Part shown: in pieces, positions 1-27,274 of the stretch
Position numbering within the stretch: the stretch's first letter is position 1
Layout: every line of letters begins with the position of its first letter
Source: an uncultured archaeon
GTDB lineage: Archaea > Iainarchaeota > Iainarchaeia > Iainarchaeales > DATDZZ01
Reading direction: 5' to 3'
Assembly (NCBI GenBank): GCA_964373795.1
Contig: CAYJVY010000001.1
Span: forward strand, 131,537 to 163,536
DNA: 32,000 nt
Notes under the pieces: generated by a model
What the model was told of the DNA's origin: nothing
The model's database searches: none
Seen by the model: only the letters and a program-made list of their open reading frames with translations
Made by a program: the position numbers and the translations under genes

Positions 1-130
1 CTTGGATTTTTTGAATTCAATTCTGCAAGCAGAAAAATTTAAGTCTTGCCTAGTTTCTGGAAGCAAGGTTTTCTTAGAATATAATGGAGTTCAATTTCTT
101 GCAGGCATTAATTTAATTTTAATGAAGCAA

Positions 131-406
131 GTGCAGTTCAGCCGGCGAGGCTGAGTGCCCACGTGGGCATCGCGCTTGCCGCGCGAGACGGCAGCTGAAG
201 GGTCACGTGACCCCTCGTGCTCGACGCACGAGACGTCGCAGCCGGCGAGGCTGAAGCTAAAGCCAATGAAGCTGAGCCAAGTGGTGGGTGTGAGTCAACA
301 GTCAGCGGAGCTGAGGCAGGCGGCGAACATGAAGCCAGTGAGGTTGACTCGTGTTCATTGTGTGCAACCGCAGTTGAGTGCCTTCGAATCATTTTGGTTA
401 GTCGCG
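131..406 (+). ncRNA. GC-rich structured element, unclassified candidate non-coding RNA
   Basis: This is the only stretch in the window with G+C far above background. It carries consecutive perfect hairpins at 138-154, 156-169, 171-185, 200-213, 214-232, 239-253 and 292-350. The plus strand is G/purine-rich. All three overlapping track ORFs translate to low-complexity A/S/G/R-rich sequence. Boundaries and strand are approximate. Confidence 0.35.
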
Positions 407-499
407 TTATTTTCTGAGTTAATCTCCATTAAAATGAAATAACTTCATAATCCCTTTCTTTTAGTATCAAAAGGTTTATTAACACTAAAATAAAGAATA

Positions 500-1613: not shown

Positions 1614-3131
1614 TTGAAGATTGTTACTTTAAATCCGCCTTTTTTTGAAAAGTTTTCCAAGGATTCTAGGAGTCCAGGTGTATCAAAAGGAGGCTGTGTT
1701 TATTATCCTATTTGGCTTGGATATTGCACTGGATTACTTGAAAAGCAAGGACATGAAGTGAAATTAATTGATTCCCCTGCTGAAGGAATGAATTTAGAAA
1801 AATGTTTGCAAATTGTTAAAGAATTTAATCCTAGAATGATTGTAGTGCAAACAGTTACTGCAAGTTTTAATAATGACATAATGGTTGTAGAAGAATTAAA
1901 GAAAATCTTGCCAAATGTTTTCATTGCATTAGTTGGAGATCATACTAGTGCAGTGCCAATTGAGTCTCTTAAAGCAAGTAAATTTGTTGACTGTGTAACA
2001 ATTCAAGAATTTGATTTCACTGTAAGAGATATTGCAATTGCTTTAGAGCAAGGAAAAGATATCTCTACTGTTAGAGGAATTGTTTATAGAAAAATTAATT
2101 CAGATGTATTAGAAGAATTCAAGTTTACTTTGCCTCGCGAATTAATTTCAGGCCAAGACTTAGATGAATTTCCATTTGTTTCAGATGTTTATAAAAGACA
2201 TTTAACAATTGAAAACTATTTTTATCCTTCAGTGTTATATCCTGAAGTAACAATTATTACTGGCCGTGGATGCAAATACAGATGTACGTTTTGTAAATGG
2301 CCGCAGACTTTGACAATGCATGAATATAGAGCTAGGTCAGTGAAAAATGTGGTAGATGAATTTGAATGGATTGAAAAAAATTTGCCTCAAGTAAAAGACA
2401 TTATGATTGAAGATGATACTTTAACTCAAGACAAGACTAGAACAATTGAGTTATGTAAAGAAGTTGTTGCAAGAGGGTTGAAAATTCCTTGGACTTGTAA
2501 TTCCAGAGCAGACATTGATTTAGAGACAATGGAGTGGATGAAGAAAGCTAATTGTAGATTAATGTGTGTTGGATTTGAATCAGCTGATCAACAAATTTTA
2601 AACAATATTAAGAAGGGAACAATGATTCCAAAAATAAAGCAATTTGTTGTAGATGCAAAAAAAGCAGGAATATTAATTCATGGGTGTTTCATGCTTGGAA
2701 ATAAAGGTGAAACAAAGGAAACAATTAAGAAAACAGTTGCAATGGCTAAAGAATTAGATCCTGATACAGCTCAATTTTTTCCAATAATGGTTTATCCTGG
2801 AACAGAGGCATATAAATGGGCTGAAGAAAATAATTTCCTGAAAACAAAGGATTGGAGTAAATGGTTATTGCCTGATGGAACTCACAATTCAATTGTTTCA
2901 ACAGACAAATTAACTTCAGAAGAACTAGTAAGAGAATGCGATAAAGCAAGAATTGCATTTTATTTAAGGCCTGCATTTATTTTCAGAAAATTAAATCAAG
3001 TAATAAAAAATCCTTTAAAAGAATTCCCTAGATTTGTTATTTCAACTTGGATTTTCTCTAAGTACTTGGCAAAAGAAGTAAAAGAAACCATTTTTCCAAC
3101 TCCTTCCAGCAAAACAACTCTTTCAGCTTAA
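1614..3131 (+). CDS. B12-binding-domain radical SAM enzyme (class B, HpnJ-like architecture)
   Basis: It has the CX3CX2C cluster motif GRGCKYRCTFCKW. The N-terminal cobalamin-binding-type domain (LNPPFFEKF...YYPIWLGY...LIDSPAEG, EFDFTVRDIA) resembles HpnJ-type enzymes. A TTG start lies 6 nt after GGTGA. Confidence 0.8.
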   Translation: MKIVTLNPPFFEKFSKDSRSPGVSKGGCVYYPIWLGYCTGLLEKQGHEVKLIDSPAEGMNLEKCLQIVKEFNPRMIVVQTVTASFNNDIMVVEELKKILPNVFIALVGDHTSAVPIESLKASKFVDCVTIQEFDFTVRDIAIALEQGKDISTVRGIVYRKINSDVLEEFKFTLPRELISGQDLDEFPFVSDVYKRHLTIENYFYPSVLYPEVTIITGRGCKYRCTFCKWPQTLTMHEYRARSVKNVVDEFEWIEKNLPQVKDIMIEDDTLTQDKTRTIELCKEVVARGLKIPWTCNSRADIDLETMEWMKKANCRLMCVGFESADQQILNNIKKGTMIPKIKQFVVDAKKAGILIHGCFMLGNKGETKETIKKTVAMAKELDPDTAQFFPIMVYPGTEAYKWAEENNFLKTKDWSKWLLPDGTHNSIVSTDKLTSEELVRECDKARIAFYLRPAFIFRKLNQVIKNPLKEFPRFVISTWIFSKYLAKEVKETIFPTPSSKTTLSA

Positions 3132-6857: not shown

Positions 6858-7388
6858 CTAAACAATGATTGCCTTCCACAGAAGCAACAAGATCATAAAC
6901 TTTGAGAGAAAAACCACAATGAATAATTGAGGCAAGTTTATTTTTCCAAATGACATCAATGCAAGGGCTATTTCATCAGGAACTGGCATGCCAAATGCAA
7001 AAAATCCCAGAACCGGAAATGCTACTGATAGCTTAGCGAAATTACAGTGAAGCTTTTCCATAATTTTCTCAGTGTTTTTCTCCAAAGTCTTCCTTACAAC
7101 CGAGAAAAGGAGACAATCAACACAAGCAGCAACAAGTGCAGCAACTAAAGCAAAAAAAATAGCGTTCCCACTTTGCATTAGCTCCAATATAACAGCCATT
7201 GAAAAAGGTGTTGTTATGCCGAATGTATAAAAAGCTCCAGCAACAGCAGAACCAATCAATCCAAACCCAAGAAGATATTTTGAAACAATTCTGTCAAGAC
7301 CAAATAACACTAAGACCAAGCTCACAGCAATAAATATTATTGATAGAAGAATTCTTAATTCTAGAGAAAACTTTTTTGATAAAAGCAT
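6858..7388 (-). CDS. Hypothetical small integral membrane protein
   Basis: This 176-aa ORF has 4-5 predicted hydrophobic helices. I recognise no family. Confidence 0.5.
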   Translation of the reverse strand: MLLSKKFSLELRILLSIIFIAVSLVLVLFGLDRIVSKYLLGFGLIGSAVAGAFYTFGITTPFSMAVILELMQSGNAIFFALVAALVAACVDCLLFSVVRKTLEKNTEKIMEKLHCNFAKLSVAFPVLGFFAFGMPVPDEIALALMSFGKINLPQLFIVVFLSKFMILLLLWKAIIV

Positions 7389-7399
7389 TAAATCGCCTA

Positions 7400-8660
7400 A
7401 TAATATTATTCTTAATTTAGTATGTCAATTACCCACCATTGAAATGGTTGGCTTGTCGTTAAGCTCTGCTTCAATTCTGTTTCCAGTTTCAGCTTCATCA
7501 CTTACAACATTTGGCTTATTGACTAAAGCCTGCACAAAAAGAGATTTACCCCCTCTGACAATATTTCGAGAAGCATTCAAATCAGAATGCAACTCAAAAA
7601 CACATTCTTTACATTTGAACACACTTTCATGCCTATTATTTTTATCAACATATCCGCATTTAGAACATTCCTGACTTGTATACTTAGGATTAACCAAAAC
7701 AACTGATTTACCCAATCTCTCAACTTTATATTCAATGAAACTTCTAAGTTGAGCAAAACTCCAATTACCAATCATTTTTCTAGTTTTTCTACCAGTTCTG
7801 GAATTCCTAACATTTTTCAAGTCTTCTAAAGCAAATACATTGAAAGGCAATTCAACAATTTGCTTGCTAATTAAATGATTTACATTTCGCACAAAACGGT
7901 TCTCTTTTCCACTAACTTTTTGTAGTTTTCTTTTAGCGGATTTAGTGCCTTTGCTTTGCAAATCACTTTTCAACTTCTGATATTTACCTTTAATATTTCT
8001 CAAACTTCGAGAATTAAAAAAAGAATTATTTGACAAAGTAACAATATTTTTTATACCACTATCAATGTCAAGAGTTTCAAAACCTTCAACTTTAGGAATT
8101 TTATCATTCAACATTTGTAAATGCAAAAAATAGTTTTGTCTTTTCTTTACAAGTTGGGCATTTGAGTATTTCCACTCAGAATATTTTTTGAAATAATTAG
8201 CCATTATGAAAGGAATTTTTTGTCTACCAAACAAAGTGCTTATAGAAATTATACCTTTGTCAAACATTATTGAAAGGTTTCTTTTGTCAAATCTTATTCC
8301 AGAAAACTCTTTTTTAATAGGTTTTTGTTTTAATTTCAATTTTTTGAGCATATCACTTGCTTGATCACGGGAAGTTTGAAGTAAAGAAGATTGTATGCGT
8401 GGATATTTTTTTCTAAGTAAATTGTAAGTTCTTTTATGTAGTTTGTTTTTGTTAAAAGTATGGTTTTCATATCCAAAATTAATTATTTCTTGACAAGTTT
8501 TGTTAAATGTGGACATAGTTGATTCTAATTCCTTCACAACACCAAGTTTTATTATTACAGTCCTAATATCTTTATTAATCATACAATATTATTATTACTT
8601 CTTACTTATAAAAGTTTAGACTTATTTCAAAGATCCTTAAATAAGCCACATTAACTGCCT
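7400..8660 (-). mobile_element. Putative solo-TnpB (IS1341-like) element; ends approximate
   Basis: The tnpB gene is bracketed by imperfect hairpins. One lies at about 7433-7451, across the stop codon (candidate RE / omega-RNA 3' stem). The other lies at 8621-8645 (CTTATTT...AAATAAG, candidate LE hairpin). A TATA-like TTTATAAG sits about 30 nt upstream of the ATG. Confidence 0.4.
7425..8582 (-). CDS. tnpB: TnpB-like RNA-guided endonuclease (IS200/IS605-family OrfB)
   Basis: The motifs are RuvC-I LDIDSGIKN, RuvC-II ALEDLK, zinc ribbon CSKCG...CKEC and RuvC-III HSDLNASRNI. The 385-aa length is typical. No tnpA is adjacent. Confidence 0.85.
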   Translation of the reverse strand: MINKDIRTVIIKLGVVKELESTMSTFNKTCQEIINFGYENHTFNKNKLHKRTYNLLRKKYPRIQSSLLQTSRDQASDMLKKLKLKQKPIKKEFSGIRFDKRNLSIMFDKGIISISTLFGRQKIPFIMANYFKKYSEWKYSNAQLVKKRQNYFLHLQMLNDKIPKVEGFETLDIDSGIKNIVTLSNNSFFNSRSLRNIKGKYQKLKSDLQSKGTKSAKRKLQKVSGKENRFVRNVNHLISKQIVELPFNVFALEDLKNVRNSRTGRKTRKMIGNWSFAQLRSFIEYKVERLGKSVVLVNPKYTSQECSKCGYVDKNNRHESVFKCKECVFELHSDLNASRNIVRGGKSLFVQALVNKPNVVSDEAETGNRIEAELNDKPTISMVGN

Positions 8661-8926: not shown

Positions 8927-9427
8927 ATGGAAGGGCTTTCCAGCAAGGAAATCAAGGTTATTTCTTTTCTTGAACTCAATGAGAAGTCTTTCTTTACAAG
9001 AAAAGACATCAAACAGTTTTTCAAGAACTATTCCGAGCTTTCAGTTTATCTTCACAGGCTTAAAAGCAAAGGCAGGATAATCAAGATAACCAAAACCAAA
9101 TATTACCTAGTTCCGATAAAAGCATACGAGGGCAAATGGTCTGAAAATCCATTCATTGTAATTGACGAAATATTCAACGGCAAAAACTATTTCATTGGAG
9201 GTTATGCCGCAGCACACTATTTGGGCCTCATTGACCAAATCCCAAGAAAAATTGAAGTCTATTGCACCAACAAGCAGGGAAAAACCAAACTTTTTGACAC
9301 AGAAATTGTATTTAAGAGAATCAGACCAAAAAACCTCGTTGGCTTTGTCGAACAAAAATCCAAAAACCACTCTTTCAAAATAGCTTCTAAAGAAAAGGTA
9401 TTGCAATGGATGAAATCAAACCCATAA
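8927..9427 (+). CDS. AbiEi-family antitoxin / transcriptional regulator (type IV TA)
   Basis: An N-terminal winged-helix-like segment (FFTRKDIKQFF...LHRLKSKGRIIKITKTKYYLVP) is followed by GGYAAAHYLGLIDQIP. It overlaps the downstream AbiEii gene by 22 nt. Confidence 0.6.
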   Translation: MEGLSSKEIKVISFLELNEKSFFTRKDIKQFFKNYSELSVYLHRLKSKGRIIKITKTKYYLVPIKAYEGKWSENPFIVIDEIFNGKNYFIGGYAAAHYLGLIDQIPRKIEVYCTNKQGKTKLFDTEIVFKRIRPKNLVGFVEQKSKNHSFKIASKEKVLQWMKSNP

Positions 9428-10188
9428 CAGAAAACCGCCTTCGATTCTTGGCAGCTGACAAAAAATTCAGTCTCTACTACTTGGAAAAAGACTATTACCT
9501 GACAGCACTGCTGTATTTCCTCAAAGATGTTCCTGACATTTGCTTTAAAGGCGGAACCGCACTAAACAAAATATTCCTCAACCACACCAGGCTGAGCGAA
9601 GACCTGGATTTTACCTGTGTCGGCCCACTGGAAAAAACAAAAAAAGCAATTCTCGAAATAGCTGAAAGCCACAAGGAATTCTTTATAAGAACACAATTTG
9701 ACAAGCAAACACCAAACTTTTTCAGGCTAAAAATCACCTACAAAACAATAACAGACTTAAGACCAGAAATCGTTGTTGATGTAAACAAGCAGGCATCTGT
9801 TTACTTGAAACCACAAAAATATAAGATCCCACACTTTTACGATGAAATCCCAGAGTTTGAGGTTTCTGCACTCGACAAGAAGGAATTGATTGCAGAAAAA
9901 GTCAGAACTCTTTTTCAAAGAAAAAAGGCAAGAGACTACTTCGACCTCTACTCCATAATCCAAGAAAAAATTCCAATAGATTTGGCTCTTGTAAAAAAGA
10001 AGCTAAAAGACATCAAAAAATTTGAAGTTAGCCAAATTTTCAAAAACGCCAACAAAGTTTATCGCTCTTGGGAACTGGAAATCAGTGCACTAACCAACAA
10101 ACCAATCGAATACAAAACCGCAATAACCACTATTTCCAAACACTTCAAATACAAGCAAACAAAACAAAGCAAGGCTGCCAAGAAGTGA
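9406..10188 (+). CDS. AbiEii/AbiGii-family nucleotidyltransferase toxin (DUF1814)
   Basis: It carries the signature FKGGTALNKIFLNHTRLSEDLDF (GGTAL...R.SEDLDF). The 260-aa length and operon overlap with AbiEi fit the family. Confidence 0.75.
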   Translation: MDEIKPITENRLRFLAADKKFSLYYLEKDYYLTALLYFLKDVPDICFKGGTALNKIFLNHTRLSEDLDFTCVGPLEKTKKAILEIAESHKEFFIRTQFDKQTPNFFRLKITYKTITDLRPEIVVDVNKQASVYLKPQKYKIPHFYDEIPEFEVSALDKKELIAEKVRTLFQRKKARDYFDLYSIIQEKIPIDLALVKKKLKDIKKFEVSQIFKNANKVYRSWELEISALTNKPIEYKTAITTISKHFKYKQTKQSKAAKK

Positions 10189-10350
10189 ATTGCATGGAAA
10201 CATTTAAGGGAAAAGTCCGCAGAATCCTAGCCAACGGTGGAACCGGAATTTCCATTTTGGTTTTGTTTGACGGAAACAATAATACTTATTTTTGTGCCAG
10301 CATTTTAGGCAGGCTAGACTAACTTTTTCTGGGTTTGTCATTTGATCACT

Positions 10351-10620
10351 TTACAGTTCTTTTATTTGGTTGAGTGTTGTTTCTATGTTTTCGTTTGAAA
10401 CTAGGAAGAACGCTGTTTTTCCATTTCCAAGTTTTGCCCAGTCGTCTGCAATCTCAACTTTGTATTGGGTGTCTTTTGTGCTGGTTCGGTCGTCCCCTTT
10501 CCATTCAAGAACATAATTGTGCCTTTTTTTGTAACTGCAATAAAGTCAGGATAAAATTTGCCTCTCTTCCAGCCTGGATGTAGAAGTCTTGCTTTTCCTT
10601 GTTACGAACCCAGCATTTGG
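10351..10620 (-). pseudogene. Frameshifted C-terminal remnant of a PD-(D/E)xK nuclease domain, as found at the end of type III restriction Res / helicase-like proteins
   Basis: My own minus-strand translation gives three frames. They read CWVRNKEKQDFYI..., then ...HPGWKRGKFYPDFIAVTKKG, then ...NYVLEWKGDDRTSTKDTQYKVEIADDWAKLGNGKTAFFLVSNENIETTLNQIKEL*. One shift falls in the homopolymer run at 10524-10530. No N-terminal helicase part is present. Confidence 0.55.
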
Positions 10621-10753
10621 CTTACTTGCATTAAATTCTTTTTTTCTCTGATAAAACGAAAATTAAAATTAAAGAGCATTAATTAAAAAATATGGCTTTT
10701 TAAATTGTTTTATGAGATAAATATTCTACTAATATAGTTGCCGGGGTGATTAA

Positions 10754-10900
10754 TTGCCTTTAGTTGAAGCAAGTTCCAAGTCATCAAGAGTTGAACGAAG
10801 ATGCATGAGTTGTGGCAGGGCTTTAAATCCAGATGCAAGAGACCTTTATTCAAGAAGATTTTGCTCTAATGGATGTAAAGAAAACTATTTAAGAAAATAA
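10754..10900 (+). CDS. Small zinc-ribbon protein (DUF2116-like), missed by the ORF track
   Basis: The 48 codons read (M)PLVEASSKSSRVERRCMSCGRALNPDARDLYSRRFCSNGCKENYLRK*. It has a CxxC...CxxxC pattern. A TTG start lies 3 nt after GGGGTGAT. Confidence 0.55.
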   Translation: MPLVEASSKSSRVERRCMSCGRALNPDARDLYSRRFCSNGCKENYLRK

Positions 10901-10921
10901 AACTTTTTTAATAGTGTTCAA

Positions 10922-11739: not shown

Positions 11740-12237
11740 GTGATTGAATTGAGTGAAGTTAAAAAAATAATTGAAGCAGCATTATTTATGAGTTCAAAAC
11801 CAATTCCTTTCATGGAATTACTTAAGTTATCGGAAAGCGCTTTAGAGTTAAGAAAATCAATTACTGAGTTAACCAATTTTTATAATTCATCTGATTCTGC
11901 TTTAGAAATAACTGAAACTCCTGCAGGATTTCAAATGAGGGTTAGATTAAATTATGCTGATAAAGTAAACCATTTAGCTGCTGCTTCAAGTGAATTTTCT
12001 TCATCTGTAATGAAAACCCTTGCATTAATTGCTTACAAGCAACCATTAATTCAAGCAGAATTAATTAAGTATCGTTCAAACAAAGCATACGAAGACGTAA
12101 AAGTTTTAGAGTCATTAGGATTTATTTCTCGTGAACCAAACCAGAAAACATTTATTTTGCGTACAACAAAAAAATTCGTTGAATACTTCGGCCCAAACCC
12201 AGTGAAACTAGTAAAACACGAAGCATTAAAAGAATAA
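11740..12237 (+). CDS. scpB: Segregation and condensation protein B
   Basis: It has the ScpB-type N-terminus IIEAALFMSSKPIP and a second winged-helix segment (LIAYKQPLIQAELIKYR). It uses a GTG start. Confidence 0.7.
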   Translation: MIELSEVKKIIEAALFMSSKPIPFMELLKLSESALELRKSITELTNFYNSSDSALEITETPAGFQMRVRLNYADKVNHLAAASSEFSSSVMKTLALIAYKQPLIQAELIKYRSNKAYEDVKVLESLGFISREPNQKTFILRTTKKFVEYFGPNPVKLVKHEALKE

Positions 12238-12245
12238 TTTCTAAA

Positions 12246-12989
12246 TCACTTCTTTTTAACATATATTTGATAAGGAAAGTAAACTCTTCCTTCAATTTCC
12301 AAAGTAATTGTTTTAACACTGTTTTCAGTTTTATTAAAAATGGCGTCATATATTTCATATTGGTTATCGTTTATCTCAAAATAAATTTTTGAACCCTTAT
12401 TCAGAGGAGGTGAAGTAAACCATCCTCCTCTCTCAGTTTTTCCTTCTTTTAATAACTCTCCATTTGATGAAAAAAGTTTTACATTGATTCCTTCCACTTC
12501 ATTAAAAATATTTTCATCAAGAACAGAAATTTTAACAGTGTTTTCTTTTTTTTCAAAATCATATAAAGGATTTAATGAAACTGCAAAGCTGCTTACTTTT
12601 GATAGAACTCCACCTTCAATATATTCGTGACTGCTTACAAATCCTTCCTTCATTGCAAGTACGTATAAAGATTCATTTTTATCAGTGTTTTCTTTAATAG
12701 CTTTAGTTGAATAAAACGTTCCATCAAAACCTGTTCGACCTTCGTCTACTATGAAAAATATTGAACCAGTTTCTTCATTAATTGTATTTCTTTTAATCAC
12801 AACTACTATTGAGTCTGATACTGGTTGTTGGGTTTCATCATTCAAGACAATGATTTTTCCATTACCTGAATTGTTTATTAAATTTACTCCAATGCATCCA
12901 CTTAAAGTAATAATTAATAAAACCAAAAGCACAAAACTTGTCAAACTTTTTTTTGATTCCATAAATTCTACAAAAACCTTATTTAACAA
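12246..12989 (-). CDS. Hypothetical membrane-anchored / lipoprotein-like protein
   Basis: An N-terminal TM helix ends in the lipobox-like LSGC. The rest is beta-rich, and I recognise no family. Confidence 0.5.
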   Translation of the reverse strand: MLNKVFVEFMESKKSLTSFVLLVLLIITLSGCIGVNLINNSGNGKIIVLNDETQQPVSDSIVVVIKRNTINEETGSIFFIVDEGRTGFDGTFYSTKAIKENTDKNESLYVLAMKEGFVSSHEYIEGGVLSKVSSFAVSLNPLYDFEKKENTVKISVLDENIFNEVEGINVKLFSSNGELLKEGKTERGGWFTSPPLNKGSKIYFEINDNQYEIYDAIFNKTENSVKTITLEIEGRVYFPYQIYVKKK

Positions 12990-14486: not shown

Positions 14487-17400
14487 ACAAATTCAAATAA
14501 ACTTTTTTGAGAAGGTTTATCGTCTTTAAAAATTGAATCAATTTCTAGTTCAGCTAATTCAATTCTTTGCTTTAAATAAGTGCTTAAATCGTAGTTGTAA
14601 ATTATTTGTTTAGCTATTTCTAAATATTTTCTTACAGTTCCTTGAGAGATTGTTAAAATTAATTCATTATTGCATTTAGTGCAAGTGCCTTTTAATGGAA
14701 TTCTTCTATACTTTGAATTGCATTTACTGCATCTAAATTGTTGTCTAGTGAAAGCGCGAGCATTTCCAATAATGTCTGGAAAGAAATGGCTTCTTAAAAC
14801 TCTTTCCAATGCATCTTTTCCTTTCACTGATTTTATTTTGAATTGCAGTTCAGCCTGTCGTTTAATTTTTTCCTCCATTTCTTTTAATTGAGTATACATT
14901 GATTGTTTTGGTCCGGCATCGAATAAAGTTGTTGAATGAGTGAAATTTAATTCAGTGAATTGATTTTCTTTTCCTAGTTTTTTTTGCACTGTTGAAATAA
15001 AATTCAAAAAACTTGTTTCATAGTTTAACGATTTTTCATATAATTCTATTGGATATTCTTTGCATGTCTCCATTGAATAAACTTCATCATCTATTTCTTG
15101 AGGATTTAATGCAACAGTAAAAACTAATGGAGCATCCATTCTTCCCCCGCTTTTATGGCTTAAATATGTTTGACTAAAATTCAATAATGAATCCATTAAC
15201 AACATTATTGAATCTTGATCTCCATCAAAATTTCTTCTTCTACACATTACTGAATATGGATGGCACCACATTAGCAATGCTTTACTGAATCCAATTACTC
15301 TTTGAACTATTCCAGCAGAAGTATGAGGAGCTAATCCAATTACTAGTTCTCCAATTAATTCTTCTTTTGAATTAACTTTATAGTATGGTTCTATTTTGTA
15401 AAATTTTTCAAGTAATTCGTCAATGAATTTACTCATTCTAAGCATCCAAATTCCGGCTTTTTCGTTCACAATTACGTCTTGAGGAAATAATTCAATTAAT
15501 TGTTCTTCTGAAGTAATTTCTTTTCCTTCAAAATCAACTGTATACCCTAATACTTTTACTTTTTCAACTGTTAAACCAATTTCTTTTGGTTTAAAAAAAT
15601 TTAATGGAGCATTTAATAACTCAAACCTGCTTGTCCCATCTCTATAAATATGAATATTGTGTTTTCCTCTTAGAATTCCTTTTTCCAATGGCTCTGGAAT
15701 CTTTGATTCAGCAAATAATCCTTTGACTCCTTTAATTAAGTCAGGCATTCTTTCATCTAAATTTTCAACTGCTTCGCCTAACATTTTTTTTAATTCAATT
15801 TTTCTTTTATTAAATTCACTTAAATTAATTGATCCGCATCCTTTACATCTTTCTCCTTCAACTATTCTCATACAGTCATTGCAAGAATTAACCTTCATTG
15901 TTCTAATTCCACATTCCTTGCAATAATAGTATGGCAAGATTTTTTCGCATTTCATGCATTTAAATAAAGCTATTTCTACTTCTATTACTCCTTCTTGTAA
16001 AGACTTTTTATCAATGTCATTCATTGCTTTGTTAATGCTTCTAGTTGGCCCTCCTTTTAATGCAATTGGAAACAATATATGTGGATTGCCTTTCATTTGC
16101 CTTTCTTTAGCTGCTTCTGGTCGCCCCATTCTTGCTCCAATAAATGTTCCACATTTATCCATTATTTTTACTCCGCTAATTTTGCTTAAAGATTCTAACA
16201 CGTTTTCTGAAACTAATTCCAAAACTTTTTCATTAAAAAACCCAAAACAAGTTAAAACATTTTTTGCGTGTTTTTCTTCAATAACTATTTTTCCGTCAAT
16301 TATTTTATGCTCTAATCCAATTAATTCTAATAAGGGTTTGATTTTTTCACTTACTTTTACTTGAATAATTCTTTCATCAAGTGATTCGATTTCCGCGTTT
16401 TTGAATTCATTAATTAATTCAATTAAATCTTTTTTAGACAAAATCTTGTAATAATAAATAAATTTTGGATGCAACGGAATTCCAAAATCTTTCGAAAGTT
16501 TGAAAGCAAAATCAAAATTCAATTCGTTTTCTCTTCCATTATTTGCAATTAATTTTTCAATTTCAACATTAAAATTATTTGAAGTAACTGCTTTTTTTAG
16601 GTCTTGAATCCACCATTCTTCAACATATGCACTTGGCACTAAAGGATGAGCTGTTTTTTTGAAATCCCCTAAAGTAACTAGAATATCTCCTAGGAAAAGG
16701 ATTTGCTCTAATTGAGGTTTAAGTTTCTCTGCTAATTCAATTGAATTTACTTGAATTACTTCCCCATTTTTTAATTTAATTATTGGGCCATCAATTGAAT
16801 CGCATGGAAATAATTGGGCTGCTTTTCCTGGGCGTTCAATTCTAATATGTGTTCCAACTGCAATGAATTCATCCAGTAAATACATTAAAGCTGGATTAAT
16901 TGCTTTAGCCATGCAACCAGTATTTCTTGCTTTTCCATATCTTAATCTAAACCCTCCAAAAGCACTTGGATATGCTAGTAAAGGCCTGCCTGCAGCCAAG
17001 CCTTCCAAGTATTTATCTGTTGGAGTTATTTCAGTTATTTTGTCTGCTGTTTTTTCAACCTTAATTATTTTTTCCAACCATTTCCAATCTAAGCTTAACT
17101 GGTTTGCCCAACTCAAAATCTTCATTGCTTTTAATGCAACTCCTTCTGATACAACTAAAGCCATTCCTCCTCTAATCCTGTTTGAAGGAATTCTGTCAAT
17201 ATTTCTATGAACTGAAACTTCTCTTTCTTCTGTTGGAATTCCATTAATGCATATAGGGCATCCTCTAATAATTGTTTTAATTTCTTCTTCCGGAACCTTG
17301 TATTGTCGAGAAATGATTTCAGTTTGATAAATCATTATTTCTTCTACATATCTTTCAACTTCTTCTTCTGTTGGTTTATATCTGTCAATGTCTAATAAGC

Positions 17401-23962: not shown

Positions 23963-26900
23963 ATGGATTATATAAAGCAAATAAAGGACACTATTTTGGA
24001 ATCGCTTCCAAAAGAAGCACTAGTTACTACAGTTGATTTAGAGGGCCCAGAAATAGCTATTTATACTAAAAACCCTAAAATGTTTTTTGAAAACCAAAAC
24101 CTAGTAGCAAAAGCAGCATTTGATTTAAAGAAAAGAATTAACATTAGAACAGATAAAAGTCTTTTAACTGAAGAAAACAAAGCAGAAAAAACAATTAGAG
24201 AAATTGTTCCACAAGACGCAGACATTAGAGACATTTCATTCAATCCAGCTTTTTCAGAAGTAGTAATTGAAGCAATTAAGCCAGGACTAGTAATTGGAAA
24301 AGGCGGAGAAACATCCAAGCAAATTATTTTAGAAACAGGTTGGACTCCAAACATTATTAGAGCTCCTACTTCTCCTTCAAAGATTTTGAAAGGCTTGCGA
24401 AACCATTTACATAAATATTCTAGTGAAAGAAAAAAAATTTTGCAAGACATTGCAAGAAAAATTTATGCTGAACGATCCGAAAACGCTAAGAATTGGATTA
24501 GATTACATGCTTTAGGTGCTTTCAGAGAAGTTGGAAGAAGCTGTGTATTTGTTGAAACCCCTTATACAAAGGTTTTACTTGATTGTGGAGTAAATGTTGC
24601 AAACAACGCAGAACCATATCCTTATTTAGATGCTTTAAATTTTTCAGTTGACAGATTAGATGCAGTAATAATTTCTCATGCTCATTTAGATCATTCTGGA
24701 ATGCTTCCATATCTTTTCAGACTAGGTTATAGAGGCCCGGTTTATTTAACAAAGCCTTCAAGAGACTTAATGTGTTTACTTCAATTTGATTATATTGATG
24801 TATTAGTTAAAGAAGGAAAAGAACCTCCTTACACTGAACAAGACATTAAAGAAATGATTAAGTACTGCATTACTCGTGAATACAGGGAAGTAACAGATAT
24901 TGCTCCAGACATGCGTTTAACTTTTCACAATGCCTCTCATATTCTTGGCTCGAGTTCAGTTCACTTGCATATAGGAAATGGTCAACACAATTTAGTTTAC
25001 TCTGGAGACATTAAATTTGGTTTTACTCGTTTATTTAATGATCTTGATTTAAATTTTCCAAGAATTGAAACACTAATAATTGAATCAACTTATGGATCTA
25101 AAATGGATCTTCATCCTAAAAGAATGGATGCAGAAAAAAACTTAATTCAAGTAATTAAGGAAACAATTCAAACAGGTGGAAATGTTTTAATTCCAGTTTT
25201 CGCTGTTGGAAGAGCTCAAGAAATAATGCTTGTATTAGAAGAAGGCTATAAAAGAGGAGAACTAGATGGAATAAATGTTTACGTTGATGGAATGACTAAA
25301 GAAGCTTCAGCAGTTCACACTGCTTATCCTGAATACTTGAGAAGCAAAGTTCAAAGAAGAATTCTTCAAAACGATTCGCCTTTTACTTCAGAAATATTTA
25401 AAGAAGCAACTTGGGATCAAAGAGATGAAATTCTTGCAAAAGGTTCAGCAGTAATTCTTGCTTCTTCTGGAATGCTTACAGGAGGAGCTTCACTTGATTA
25501 CTTAACTAAAATGTCTTCAGATCCAAACAATACAATAGTGTTTGTTGGATTTCAAGGACAAGGATCAACTGGAAGAAAAATTCAATCAGGAATTAAAAGC
25601 TTTCCAATTACAGCTGAAAACAGTAAAACAAAAGAATTAGTAATCAATATGCGAGTTGAAACAATTGAAGGATTTTCAGTTCCATATGAAACAGATGTAA
25701 TGATTAAAAGAAATAATTTGTTTGAATTAATTGAAATTGGAAAACTAGCAGATGAATTTCTGCCAAAAACCTCTGAAGGTTTAGTGGAGTTAAAAAGAAT
25801 TCAAGTTCCTGCATTTGATTTCAACGGAAAAATTTCTTGGCATGCTGTAAGCCATTTATTGAAGCATAAAAGTAAAGACAATCACTTGCTTTTTAAAACA
25901 AAATCTGGAAAAGAAATCCAAGTATCTAAAGGGCATAGCCTGTTTTGCTTTAAAAATAAGGCAATTCAAGCCTTGCCTGCAAACAAATTAACTACTGGCT
26001 CTCACATTGTAATTCCAAATAAATTGCCTGAATCTCACTCAATTCATTCAATTCAATTCCAAGAATTTGTTGACAATAAAAATTATGTTTTAAACGAAGA
26101 GCTTAACAAATTTGAACCAATGAAAGGTGGAAACAAAAAATCCTTTTTAATTTCTGAATGCAAGGATATGAAAAAACTTGCAAGGTTTTTAGGATATTAT
26201 ATTTCTGAAGGAAACATTGAAAAAGGAAAAGGCAATAGAGCAATTTTAAGCTTTGGAGCACATGAAAAAAACTTAATTGAAGATGCAATTGATTGCAGTA
26301 AAACTTGTTTTGGAATAACTCCAACCATTCATAAGCCTCACAAAACCGAAACACAGCTAAGGATCCATAATAAAATGTTGGTTGAATTTTTGGAACAAAT
26401 TGGTTGTGGTGAAAGAGGTTCAAGCAAAAGAGTTCCAAAAATTGTTTTAAATTTTTCAATTGAAGTTCAAAAAGAATTCTTGAAAGCATATTTTGAAGGC
26501 GATGGTTATATATACAAGAATGGAGGAAAAGGTTATCTGGCTGCAAAATCCATTAGCAAGAAACTTGTTTCAGATCTTTCCTATCTTCTTTTACAACACG
26601 GAATTGTTCCAAGAATTAAAGGTCCAATAAAAGAAAAAGCAAGGGAATTGAATGGTAATTTCTTGAAAGAATCAATTATTTTCAAAATATATTTGTCTGA
26701 AAAAGACTTTACAAAAATTCAAAGAAATATTGGCATTGCTCCGTTTGCATTGCCTTTAATTGAAATTAATTTGAGGAGCTGGTATACTGCAATATCTAAT
26801 CCAAAACTAAGAAAATTAGCTAATGCTTACATTAACGCTCTTGAAAAAAAAGGAAGAAGCTATATTGGATTACATGTTTTGAGACAGTTTTTGAATGCCT

Positions 26901-27274
26901 TAAATGAATCAAAGTTGAATAAAAAAACTCTTGAATTAATTTCAACACTAAAATGCTTATCTTTAAACGACATTTTAGTTGACGTGATTACAGAAATAAA
27001 AGAAGTTTCTTCAGGAGAATTTGAATACGACTTTGTTGTTCCAGGCAAAGAAAATTTTGTTGGAGGTTTTGGTGGAATAATGCTTCACAATTCAGGGCAC
27101 AGTGACAGATCAGAATTAACTAATTATATTCGCACTCTAAAAATTAAACCTAAAAGAGTAATAGTTGACCACGGAGAAAAATCTAAAGCAATTGAATTCG
27201 CGAAATTCATTACAGCTAAATTCAAAATCAATTCCACTGCATTACAAAACCTTGATGCAATAAGGTTAGAGTAA
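23963..27274 (+). CDS. aCPSF1/FttA-type beta-CASP ribonuclease (two N-terminal KH domains, MBL, beta-CASP) interrupted by an intein
   Basis: It has a KH GXXG motif (VIGKGGETSKQI) and the MBL motif HAHLDHSG. The beta-CASP motif GFS/GHSD is split by a 472-aa insert. Without the insert the protein is 631 aa, the usual aCPSF1 size. Confidence 0.9.
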   Translation: MDYIKQIKDTILESLPKEALVTTVDLEGPEIAIYTKNPKMFFENQNLVAKAAFDLKKRINIRTDKSLLTEENKAEKTIREIVPQDADIRDISFNPAFSEVVIEAIKPGLVIGKGGETSKQIILETGWTPNIIRAPTSPSKILKGLRNHLHKYSSERKKILQDIARKIYAERSENAKNWIRLHALGAFREVGRSCVFVETPYTKVLLDCGVNVANNAEPYPYLDALNFSVDRLDAVIISHAHLDHSGMLPYLFRLGYRGPVYLTKPSRDLMCLLQFDYIDVLVKEGKEPPYTEQDIKEMIKYCITREYREVTDIAPDMRLTFHNASHILGSSSVHLHIGNGQHNLVYSGDIKFGFTRLFNDLDLNFPRIETLIIESTYGSKMDLHPKRMDAEKNLIQVIKETIQTGGNVLIPVFAVGRAQEIMLVLEEGYKRGELDGINVYVDGMTKEASAVHTAYPEYLRSKVQRRILQNDSPFTSEIFKEATWDQRDEILAKGSAVILASSGMLTGGASLDYLTKMSSDPNNTIVFVGFQGQGSTGRKIQSGIKSFPITAENSKTKELVINMRVETIEGFSVPYETDVMIKRNNLFELIEIGKLADEFLPKTSEGLVELKRIQVPAFDFNGKISWHAVSHLLKHKSKDNHLLFKTKSGKEIQVSKGHSLFCFKNKAIQALPANKLTTGSHIVIPNKLPESHSIHSIQFQEFVDNKNYVLNEELNKFEPMKGGNKKSFLISECKDMKKLARFLGYYISEGNIEKGKGNRAILSFGAHEKNLIEDAIDCSKTCFGITPTIHKPHKTETQLRIHNKMLVEFLEQIGCGERGSSKRVPKIVLNFSIEVQKEFLKAYFEGDGYIYKNGGKGYLAAKSISKKLVSDLSYLLLQHGIVPRIKGPIKEKARELNGNFLKESIIFKIYLSEKDFTKIQRNIGIAPFALPLIEINLRSWYTAISNPKLRKLANAYINALEKKGRSYIGLHVLRQFLNALNESKLNKKTLELISTLKCLSLNDILVDVITEIKEVSSGEFEYDFVVPGKENFVGGFGGIMLHNSGHSDRSELTNYIRTLKIKPKRVIVDHGEKSKAIEFAKFITAKFKINSTALQNLDAIRLE
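25676..27091 (+). mobile_element. Intein (Ser1 ... HN / Ser+1) with LAGLIDADG homing-endonuclease domain, inside aCPSF1
   Basis: The blocks are A SVPYETDVMI, B SKGHSLF, and LAGLIDADG motifs LARFLGYYISEGN and FLKAYFEGDGYI. Blocks F/G read EYDFVVPGKENFVGGFGGIMLHN followed by SGHSD. The insert is in frame at 1416 nt. Confidence 0.85.

Follow-up and report, generated by a model that had tools for sequence, protein, structure and literature searches.

Miniature inverted-repeat transposable elements (MITEs) and the BOX elements of pneumococci are non-coding sequences of a few hundred bases, in which a flanking inverted repeat encloses a variable modular core with units of about 45 nt and strong secondary structure. 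Repetitive extragenic palindromes (REPs) lie mostly downstream of coding regions, and their units are usually quoted as 20-40 bp (PMC3733652). Specifically, REPs of the CGTC family carry an unpaired CGTC tag at one end, a stem of 8-9 bp whose first two pairs are A-T, a loop of 4-5 nt and a CCA-like tail (PMC3733652). A computational survey has predicted REP-like palindromes in Euryarchaeota and Crenarchaeota and makes no mention of the DPANN archaea (PMC12306157), and in yeast mitochondria GC-rich palindromic clusters spread, merge and shuffle within AT-rich genomes (PMC4478555). The new analysis concerns an island at positions 131-406 of a 32,000-nt stretch of contig CAYJVY010000001.1 from an uncultured archaeon; this whole stretch is referred to below as the window. 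Its short perfect hairpin modules form a real array that chance does not explain, and the island corresponds to no known gene. We tentatively read it, at somewhat less than an even chance, as a species-specific, DNA-level palindromic repeat cluster, similar to REPs and bacterial interspersed mosaic elements (BIMEs) or to the mitochondrial GC clusters and inserted at the 3' end of a gene. Of the options considered, a hitherto undescribed variant of palindromic repeat clusters from the DPANN lineage is the most likely.

Anatomy of the island and its borders

The island has a G+C content of 0.609, compared with 0.306 across the 32-kb window, and its plus strand holds 98 G and 70 C; both the roughly twofold contrast and the excess of G over C had been pointed out in an earlier note made from the letters of this DNA, and both stand. 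No second GC-rich spot is present within the window. Perfect hairpins, counted as those with a stem of at least 5 bp and a loop of at most 8 nt, were compared with dinucleotide shuffles, and the island contains 9 of them compared with 2.6 in the shuffles, only 2 of 2000 of which reached at least 9. This excess is limited to positions 131-253 (8 hairpins versus 1.95), so that the chain of back-to-back hairpins which the earlier note had seen along the whole block is genuine in this left part and disappears in the right part, 254-406, where the count is at chance (1 versus 1.0) and RNAfold gives a z score of +0.28. The 116 nt from 138 to 253 hold 8 of the 10 GC-rich perfect hairpins of the whole window, and G+C falls from 0.71 in the left part to 0.53 in the right. 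The left part folds about two standard deviations better than its shuffles on either strand (z -2.15 on the plus strand, -2.46 on the minus strand), and all 48 stem pairs are Watson-Crick pairs, with no G-U pair among them. Every stem that had been listed before was recovered in place, as were the two short recurring motifs, GCTGA(A/G) five times (starting at 150, 194, 250, 271 and 310) and ATGAAGC three times (at 122, 266 and 329). The elements of the island are the following.

138-154: hairpin H1, TCAGCC-GGCGA-GGCTGA, containing the 16-mer CAGCCGGCGAGGCTGA
156-169: palindrome P1, 14 nt, loop-less and centred on CACGTG, TGCCCACGTGGGCA
171-185: hairpin H3, CGCGC-TTGCC-GCGCG, extended by one extra pair to 170-186
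177-193: H3', an alternative hairpin overlapping H3
200-213: palindrome P2, 14 nt, loop-less and centred on CACGTG, GGGTCACGTGACCC
214-232: hairpin H5, CTCGTGC-TCGAC-GCACGAG
222-238: H5', an alternative hairpin overlapping H5
239-253: hairpin H6, CAGCC-GGCGA-GGCTG, with the second exact copy of the 16-mer at 239-254
150-193: module 1, made of GCTGAG, P1, H3 (170-186), H3' (177-193) and GAGACG
194-238: module 2, made of GCTGAA, P2 (200-213), H5 (214-232), H5' (222-238) and GAGACG
292-299/343-350: 8-bp stem GAGTCAAC/GTTGACTC enclosing 43 nt, in surroundings that fold no better than shuffles
298-317, 316-335 and 331-350: three decayed tandem copies of the 20-nt H1/H6 unit

The most informative part of this layout is the pair of tandem modules of about 45 nt. 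Over 38 aligned bases they differ at 12 positions, and together these account for six pairs, each fully compensated: the palindrome has three of them, the H hairpin one and the overlapping H' hairpin two, with no one-sided change and with identical unpaired bases. Among 2,000,000 random trials of 12 substitutions, none kept all helices. Among the remaining units, the exact 16-mer CAGCCGGCGAGGCTGA is common to H1 and H6, whose copies lie 100 nt apart, H1/H6 and H3/H5 are direct copies, and all units share the same orientation. From reading the sequence, the GGCGA loop of H1 and H6 would also be able to pair with the loop of H3. To the right, the three decayed copies of the 20-nt unit retain 14-16 of 20 matches, a set of three such matches that occurred in none of 3000 shuffles, and only the first still folds (TCAGC-GGA-GCTGA at 302-314). 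These copies form tandem 15/18-nt (GNN)n units, which account for a three-base periodicity, with G distributed by phase as 28/16/9 in 253-417 (p ~0.001).

The borders of the island, together with the open reading frames (ORFs) that run into or across it, are as follows.

2-154, plus strand: upstream ORF, frame +2, open from the window edge, with its TGA stop at 152-154
111-127: left arm of an AT-rich inverted repeat, ATTTAATTTTAATGAAG, complementary to 424-440 at 15 of 17 positions
122-138, plus strand: first copy of a direct repeat, ATGAAGCAAGTGCAGTT, directly left of the hairpin core
138-392, minus strand: ORF overlapping the next two
155-442, plus strand: ORF95, 95 aa, overlapping
217-417, plus strand: ORF66, 66 aa, with a GTG start inside H5, annotated in the NCBI record
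329-345, plus strand: second copy of the direct repeat, followed by a tail to 442 (39% G+C, frame +2 open, MKPVRL...ISIKMK*)
424-440: right arm of the inverted repeat, CTCCATTAAAATGAAAT

The pairing between 111-127 and 424-440 is equalled by 0.03% of random positions and by 0.2% of equally AT-rich positions in the window (p ~0.002), and the motif does not occur again in the 32 kb. The two copies of the direct repeat, 122-138 and 329-345, agree at 14 of 17 positions with a spacing of 207 nt (p ~0.011 by shuffling); they lie inside rather than outside the arms of the inverted repeat, and no duplication is found immediately outside positions 111 and 440.

The cluster begins at the stop codon of the upstream ORF, whose TGA forms the last three bases of H1, and the next gene starts at 500. 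The codon-position G+C of the upstream ORF (0.43/0.29/0.33) is close to that of native genes at positions 1 and 2 and above the native range of 0.15-0.27 at position 3, a value that includes the GC-rich start of the island. Unlike its neighbours on the same NCBI contig, this ORF is absent from a collection of 5.8 billion proteins. Possibly the upstream gene originally ended in the tail at 329-442, which would since have been displaced, and a tblastn comparison with relatives of an upstream ORF continuing after the insert gave chance-level matches only. The nearest T-tracts lie beyond the cluster, at 391-394 and 410-413; since the cluster precedes them, it would be transcribed into the 3' end of the upstream mRNA. 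A general hairpin terminator was considered and rejected, because hairpins follow the stop codon of no other gene in the window.

Described repeats and hairpin-chain inserts in relatives

The likeness to REPs and BIMEs lies in short GC-rich stem-loops (eight perfect hairpins in 138-253 with stems of 5-7 bp), clustered outside genes and downstream of a coding region, likely in the 3' end of an mRNA, and in the formation of species-specific families. On the minus strand, H3 and H5 even carry CGTC directly before the stem and a 5-nt loop. The differences are equally specific. The units of the island measure 14-19 nt with stems of 5-7 bp, compared with REP stems of 8-9 bp that start with A-T pairs, and its stems are perfect whereas those of REPs are imperfect. 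In the two hairpins with the CGTC tag and the 5-nt loop, the stems reach 6-7 bp, A-T is limited to the first pair, and the tail is unlike that of the CGTC super-family. The alternating orientation of BIMEs is replaced by units that are all direct, and no gene for a REP-associated tyrosine transposase (RAYT) is seen.

The mitochondrial GC clusters (PMC4478555) share with the island both composition and palindromy, namely GC-rich palindromic units in a very AT-rich genome that merge into composite clusters, stems that are more constrained than expected, and the lack of a transposase of their own. They differ in being organellar, the island lying on an archaeal chromosome; hundreds of copies and presence/absence polymorphism are documented for the mitochondrial clusters (PMC4478555). 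In addition, changes in the GC42 cluster are concentrated in loops (PMC4478555), whereas the differences between the two modules of the island are all compensated stem changes. Terminal inverted repeats, as expected of a MITE, are present in the 15/17 pairing of 111-127 with 424-440, but unlike for MITEs and BOX elements no matching autonomous element is seen for the island, and no clear target-site duplication lies by the inverted repeat. By analogy, the island appears to work most like REPs and BIMEs and like the palindromic GC clusters of AT-rich mitochondria, a resemblance that does not establish membership in any of these classes.

Further comparison was sought among the relatives of the host. 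The closest relatives of the B12-radical-SAM gene at 1614-3131, with 58-66% amino-acid identity, belong to Candidatus Iainarchaeum and to archaeon GW2011_AR10, which would place the host in the Iainarchaeota/Diapherotrites, a DPANN lineage; the species itself is present only in NCBI and Logan data. A BLASTN and nhmmer comparison with related DPANN-type DNA, which the earlier note had proposed, was run over about 230 kb from relatives and found no island-like DNA, nor was a GC island of comparable contrast seen in these sequences. In viral and metagenome collections, the 16-mer alone and the 16-mer combined with CACGTG gave only chance matches on contigs of 60-74% G+C and the module pattern gave none, and no match to the island was found in phage and plasmid records. 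In two relatives, the spacer ahead of the orthologue of the downstream gene measures only about 65-110 nt and holds no island, and gene order is not conserved. A synteny comparison was rejected, as the gene resembling a pentameric ligand-gated ion channel and the radical-SAM gene both keep no neighbours in relatives. Look-ups of ORFs for the left flank or for other assemblies of the island recovered nothing. Assemblies appear to break at or near the hairpin cluster.

The relatives do contain hairpin chains of a similar build, at the following loci.

7201-7411, 9684-9885 and 12385-12445: hairpin-chain loci in L066, Candidatus Iainarchaeum andersonii
7587-7705 and 15708-15873: hairpin-chain loci in L064, an uncultured relative

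In L066, five perfect hairpins form a 131-nt chain that separates an rfbB-like from an rfbA-like gene and is bordered by a direct repeat copying the 3' end of rfbB. L064 carries a 70-nt insert at the same junction, with two main hairpins and a perfect 24-nt flanking direct repeat; a further insert of L064, with a direct repeat of 17 nt, separates a different pair of genes. The rfbB/rfbA-like genes are adjacent and free of any insert in four further sequences (L069, L063, L067 and L068). Elsewhere in L066, the 3' end of the radical-SAM gene and its hairpins form a 93-nt tandem duplication, in which the stems differ between the copies while each remains perfectly paired. Overall, these chains comprise 2-5 perfect hairpins, are enriched over shuffles and are flanked by direct repeats, 13-24 nt long, of a junction that includes the ribosome-binding site of the downstream gene and the ATGA overlap. 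Two modules, CAACAGTTTCGGCTGTTGGGTRCGAG and CCCTGCGAAGCAGGG, turn up in either orientation at different loci and in both genomes, and modules of the relatives differ among themselves by loop inversions. These hairpin chains of the Iainarchaeota may represent an undescribed small insertion element that lacks a transposase and duplicates 13-24 nt of its target.

Several features are shared with the island. The inserts occur in the same phylum, consist of 2-5 short perfect hairpins a few nucleotides apart, sit at gene ends and are flanked by direct repeats of a gene end; the tandem copies at 9684-9870 of L066 moreover have differing stems that are each still fully paired. The island agrees with them in its hairpin chain and its position at a gene end, but its flanking direct repeat matches at only 14 of 17 positions. 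The hosts of these inserts have about 50% G+C, so that the inserts do not stand out as GC islands, and no insert is similar to the island in sequence. Dispersal and an empty site are both in evidence for the inserts of L066 and L064, and neither is for the island.

Two further observations concern the sequences of relatives. A 5S rRNA gene (77 bits) lies at 12235-12350 on the minus strand of L066, with modules A and B about 40 nt off its 5' side. In GW2011_AR10 (L062, 5285-5400), an AT-rich, TATA-like tract in an intergenic region is directly followed by two GC-rich nested or alternative hairpins, a possible small RNA gene with no Rfam match at the gathering threshold.

Competing explanations for the island

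The available data are compatible with a model in which a foreign or self-propagating GC-rich hairpin unit (CAGCCGGCGAGGCTGA), along with a 38-nt unit of palindrome plus hairpin, would have been inserted or seeded at the 3' end of a gene. The units would then have been amplified locally by tandem duplication, with the leftmost copies remaining intact and the rightmost decaying to A+T under AT-biased mutation. Perfect stems would be kept because the hairpin or cruciform form matters for propagation; alternatively, template switching between the arms of inverted repeats, as set out in PMC8604942 and PMC7202029, would copy a change in one arm onto the other and invert loops. In the transcript, the cluster would form the tail of the upstream mRNA, whose 3' end the chain of stem-loops may protect in a REP-like manner. 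Three elements of this model are inferred, namely that the insertion took place here, that the unit is mobile or multi-copy in this genome, and that it has any effect at the RNA level. A DNA-level origin is supported by the modular tandem array with its gradient of decay (a 16-mer in two exact copies, the pair of 45-nt modules, and a 20-nt unit in three degenerate copies), by the overlap with the upstream stop codon and by the 17-nt inverted and 17-nt direct repeats that bracket the island. In addition, stems made entirely of Watson-Crick pairs and equal folding of both strands are what is expected for DNA palindromes.

Several observations weigh against such a palindromic repeat cluster. The island is the one locus of its kind within 32 kb, which holds no further copy of the 16-mer or of a module. 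No transposase or RAYT-like gene was found nearby among the scanned ORFs of the window, whose sole transposon gene, tnpB at 7425-8582, is 7 kb off and has unrelated flanks. The uniform direct orientation of the units is not that of typical BIMEs, a clean target-site duplication next to the inverted repeat is missing, the locus has no empty counterpart at hand, and modules A and B of the relatives share no sequence similarity with the island. Finally, compensation in two overlapping helices and purine-rich loops on the plus strand would also suit a selected RNA structure.

This last point leads to the idea of a lineage-specific structured RNA, either an independent small RNA or a 3' untranslated element of the upstream gene, which we regard as possible but rather unlikely. 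The earlier note had led with the inference that islands of this kind are structural RNA genes, and a GC island in an AT-rich archaeal genome is indeed the classic signature of one. The surplus of G over C on the plus strand, an AT-rich, TATA-like tract about 20-30 nt upstream and the T-tracts at 391-394 and 410-413 would fit, as would six compensated pairs that include both H and H' with constant unpaired bases. The 15/17 flanking inverted repeat could moreover serve as a closing helix and appears in the minimum-free-energy fold of 100-450 (z -2.27). The core of such an RNA may be the two tandem 45-nt modules, each with two mutually exclusive or pseudoknotted helices acting as a switch or a protein-binding platform. 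A more novel possibility, though a doubtful one, is that the left half (roughly 135-255) functions in its DPANN host as a new class of RNA, either a switch or a sponge for proteins; in this layout each module may present a CACGUG-loop hairpin and then a bistable or pseudoknotted H/H' pair kept through six compensatory pair changes, and the modules may be capped by the two identical GGCGA-loop hairpins. One point against an RNA is the silence of known families. Covariance models of Rfam 15 gave nothing at the gathering threshold in the whole window and only chance-level matches at E<=10 in 1-700 (the best being chrB-a, with 22.6 bits against a cut-off of 43.9), with no match to signal recognition particle (SRP) RNA or RNase P RNA even at that level, and ARAGORN found no tRNA or tmRNA gene in the window. 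The earlier failure to see SRP, RNase P or tRNA motifs is thereby borne out, and SRP RNA, RNase P RNA, riboswitches, other Rfam families and tRNAs, odd forms included, are rejected; so is the RNA of a diversity-generating retroelement or a retron, no reverse transcriptase being present among the scanned ORFs of the window. Furthermore, only the left 120 nt are rich in hairpins, z scores of only about -2 are the same on both strands, none of the 48 stem pairs is G-U, no significant long-range fold exists within the GC-rich body, and the right half is an unstructured decayed repeat (z +0.28), all of which weakens the inference of a structural RNA. No homologue was found in the roughly 230 kb of relatives or in the scanned collections. 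The apparent covariation comes from two paralogous copies in one genome, and according to PMC8604942 and PMC7202029 template switching can yield such a pattern without selection. By our own reasoning, a pseudoknot in which a 3-nt loop crosses a 6-bp stem is sterically doubtful. Of the two options that the earlier note had left side by side, a new RNA or a DNA-level element, a DNA-level insert or palindrome cluster fits better, with added support from the analogous hairpin-chain inserts and their flanking direct repeats in two relatives, and the RNA option is left with weak support.

The other explanations are less probable still. A real small protein gene, be it ORF66 in frame +1 or a read-through of the upstream gene in frame +2, would place the hairpins within or before its coding sequence and is improbable, even though ORF66 is in the NCBI annotation, the first codon position of frame +1 has a surplus of G, a single TGA interrupts frame +2 between 2 and 442, and the three copies of ATGAAGC share one phase. 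ORF66 matched only itself among 5.8 billion proteins, and the single match of ORF95 among 1.84 billion representatives, P0006, is a spurious tandem-repeat ORF; none of the three island ORFs has a Pfam, NCBIfam or PHROGs match, the minus-strand ORF having been compared with these family libraries only. The G+C at third codon positions (GC3) of ORF66 is 0.43, versus 0.15-0.27 in native genes, and its alanine and glutamate contents of 18% and 15% contrast with 5% and 8%, far from the native proteome. The codon periodicity comes from the tandem (GNN)n units, and the same 16-mer is read in two different frames because its copies lie 100 nt apart. Recoding, by selenocysteine or otherwise, at the in-frame TGAs (152, 196 and 208) is rejected, since TGA is an ordinary stop in this genome and ends 4 of 14 native genes; a -1 frameshift signal is rejected as well, as a reading of the sequence reveals no slippery heptamer at a fitting distance. 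ORF66 is probably a by-product of stop-poor repeat sequence, in keeping with the earlier view of three mutually overlapping, non-coding ORFs on both strands. An operator-like pair of sites for a dimeric DNA-binding protein, an idea already raised in the form of protein-binding palindromes, is very improbable. The two CACGTG-centred palindromes are perfect, loop-less, 14 bp long and 44 bp apart, a centre-to-centre spacing of about four helical turns, and CACGTG is absent elsewhere in the 32 kb. They share only the 6-bp core and one adjoining C/G pair (C-CACGTG-G), however, while the outer bases differ and covary, which points to a structural constraint rather than to sequence recognition. Archaeal operators usually lie at the TATA box or the transcription start, whereas these sites are 290-340 bp upstream of the next start codon, and two CACGTG sites arise in 17 of 100 shuffles of the window. 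The least credible explanation, that of an artefact of assembly or a chimera, would draw on the short distance of 130 nt between the island and the start of the window, possibly a contig end, on the upstream ORF that is in no protein collection, and on the Logan contig L005, which ends inside the cluster at window position 225. Against it, an independent Logan assembly gives 225-406 joined to the downstream gene base for base, the left part has exact repeats and modules in common with the confirmed right part, and no plasmid or phage match exists.

Window context and wider meaning

The window is a piece of archaeal chromosome that encodes PolD DP1/DP2, ScpB, a proteasome subunit, NAC and FttA. 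Next to the island, the gene at 500-1435 on the plus strand encodes a 311-aa membrane protein with a distant signature of pentameric ligand-gated ion channels (a match to NCBIfam LGIC_1 that, at an E value of 1e-14, falls far short of the family cut-off, and a weak one to Pfam Neur_chan_LBD), which has three homologues among 5.8 billion proteins, all from archaeal contigs or metagenome-assembled genomes (MAGs). At 7425-8582 on the minus strand lies a tnpB gene (OrfB_IS605 / Cas12f-like TNB) with no TnpA found beside it; an IS200/IS605 end or a TnpB guide RNA was rejected as an identity of the island, as this gene is 7 kb away and has no related hairpins in its flanks. An AbiEi/AbiEii toxin-antitoxin pair follows at 8927-10188 on the plus strand, and the GC3 of AbiEii (0.43, compared with 0.15-0.27 in neighbours) suggests, as a compositional signal, a recent horizontal acquisition. 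The adjoining 730 nt at 10189-10921 are without an ORF of at least 100 aa and have a G+C of 0.40, an AT skew of -0.33 at 10201-10500 (T > A) and no Rfam match. Finally, the FttA/aCPSF1 gene at 23963-27274 on the plus strand (KH, metallo-beta-lactamase, beta-CASP and RMMBL domains) is split by an intein with a LAGLIDADG homing endonuclease.

The immediate lesson is one of annotation: an RNA gene should not be assumed wherever a GC island interrupts an AT-rich archaeal genome. If the reading as a palindromic repeat cluster is true, some calls of hypothetical proteins and some contig breaks in such MAGs would be repeat artefacts. It would also mean that DPANN archaea, with their tiny streamlined genomes, carry REP- or GC-cluster-like modules that insert at gene ends, duplicate their target and change over time through compensated substitutions. 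The filled and empty sites of the relatives, furthermore, provide a tractable handle on the origin of the element, that is, on whether it arises by transposition or by template switching. Under the same reading, a poorly understood class of non-autonomous DNA would gain a new domain-level lineage.

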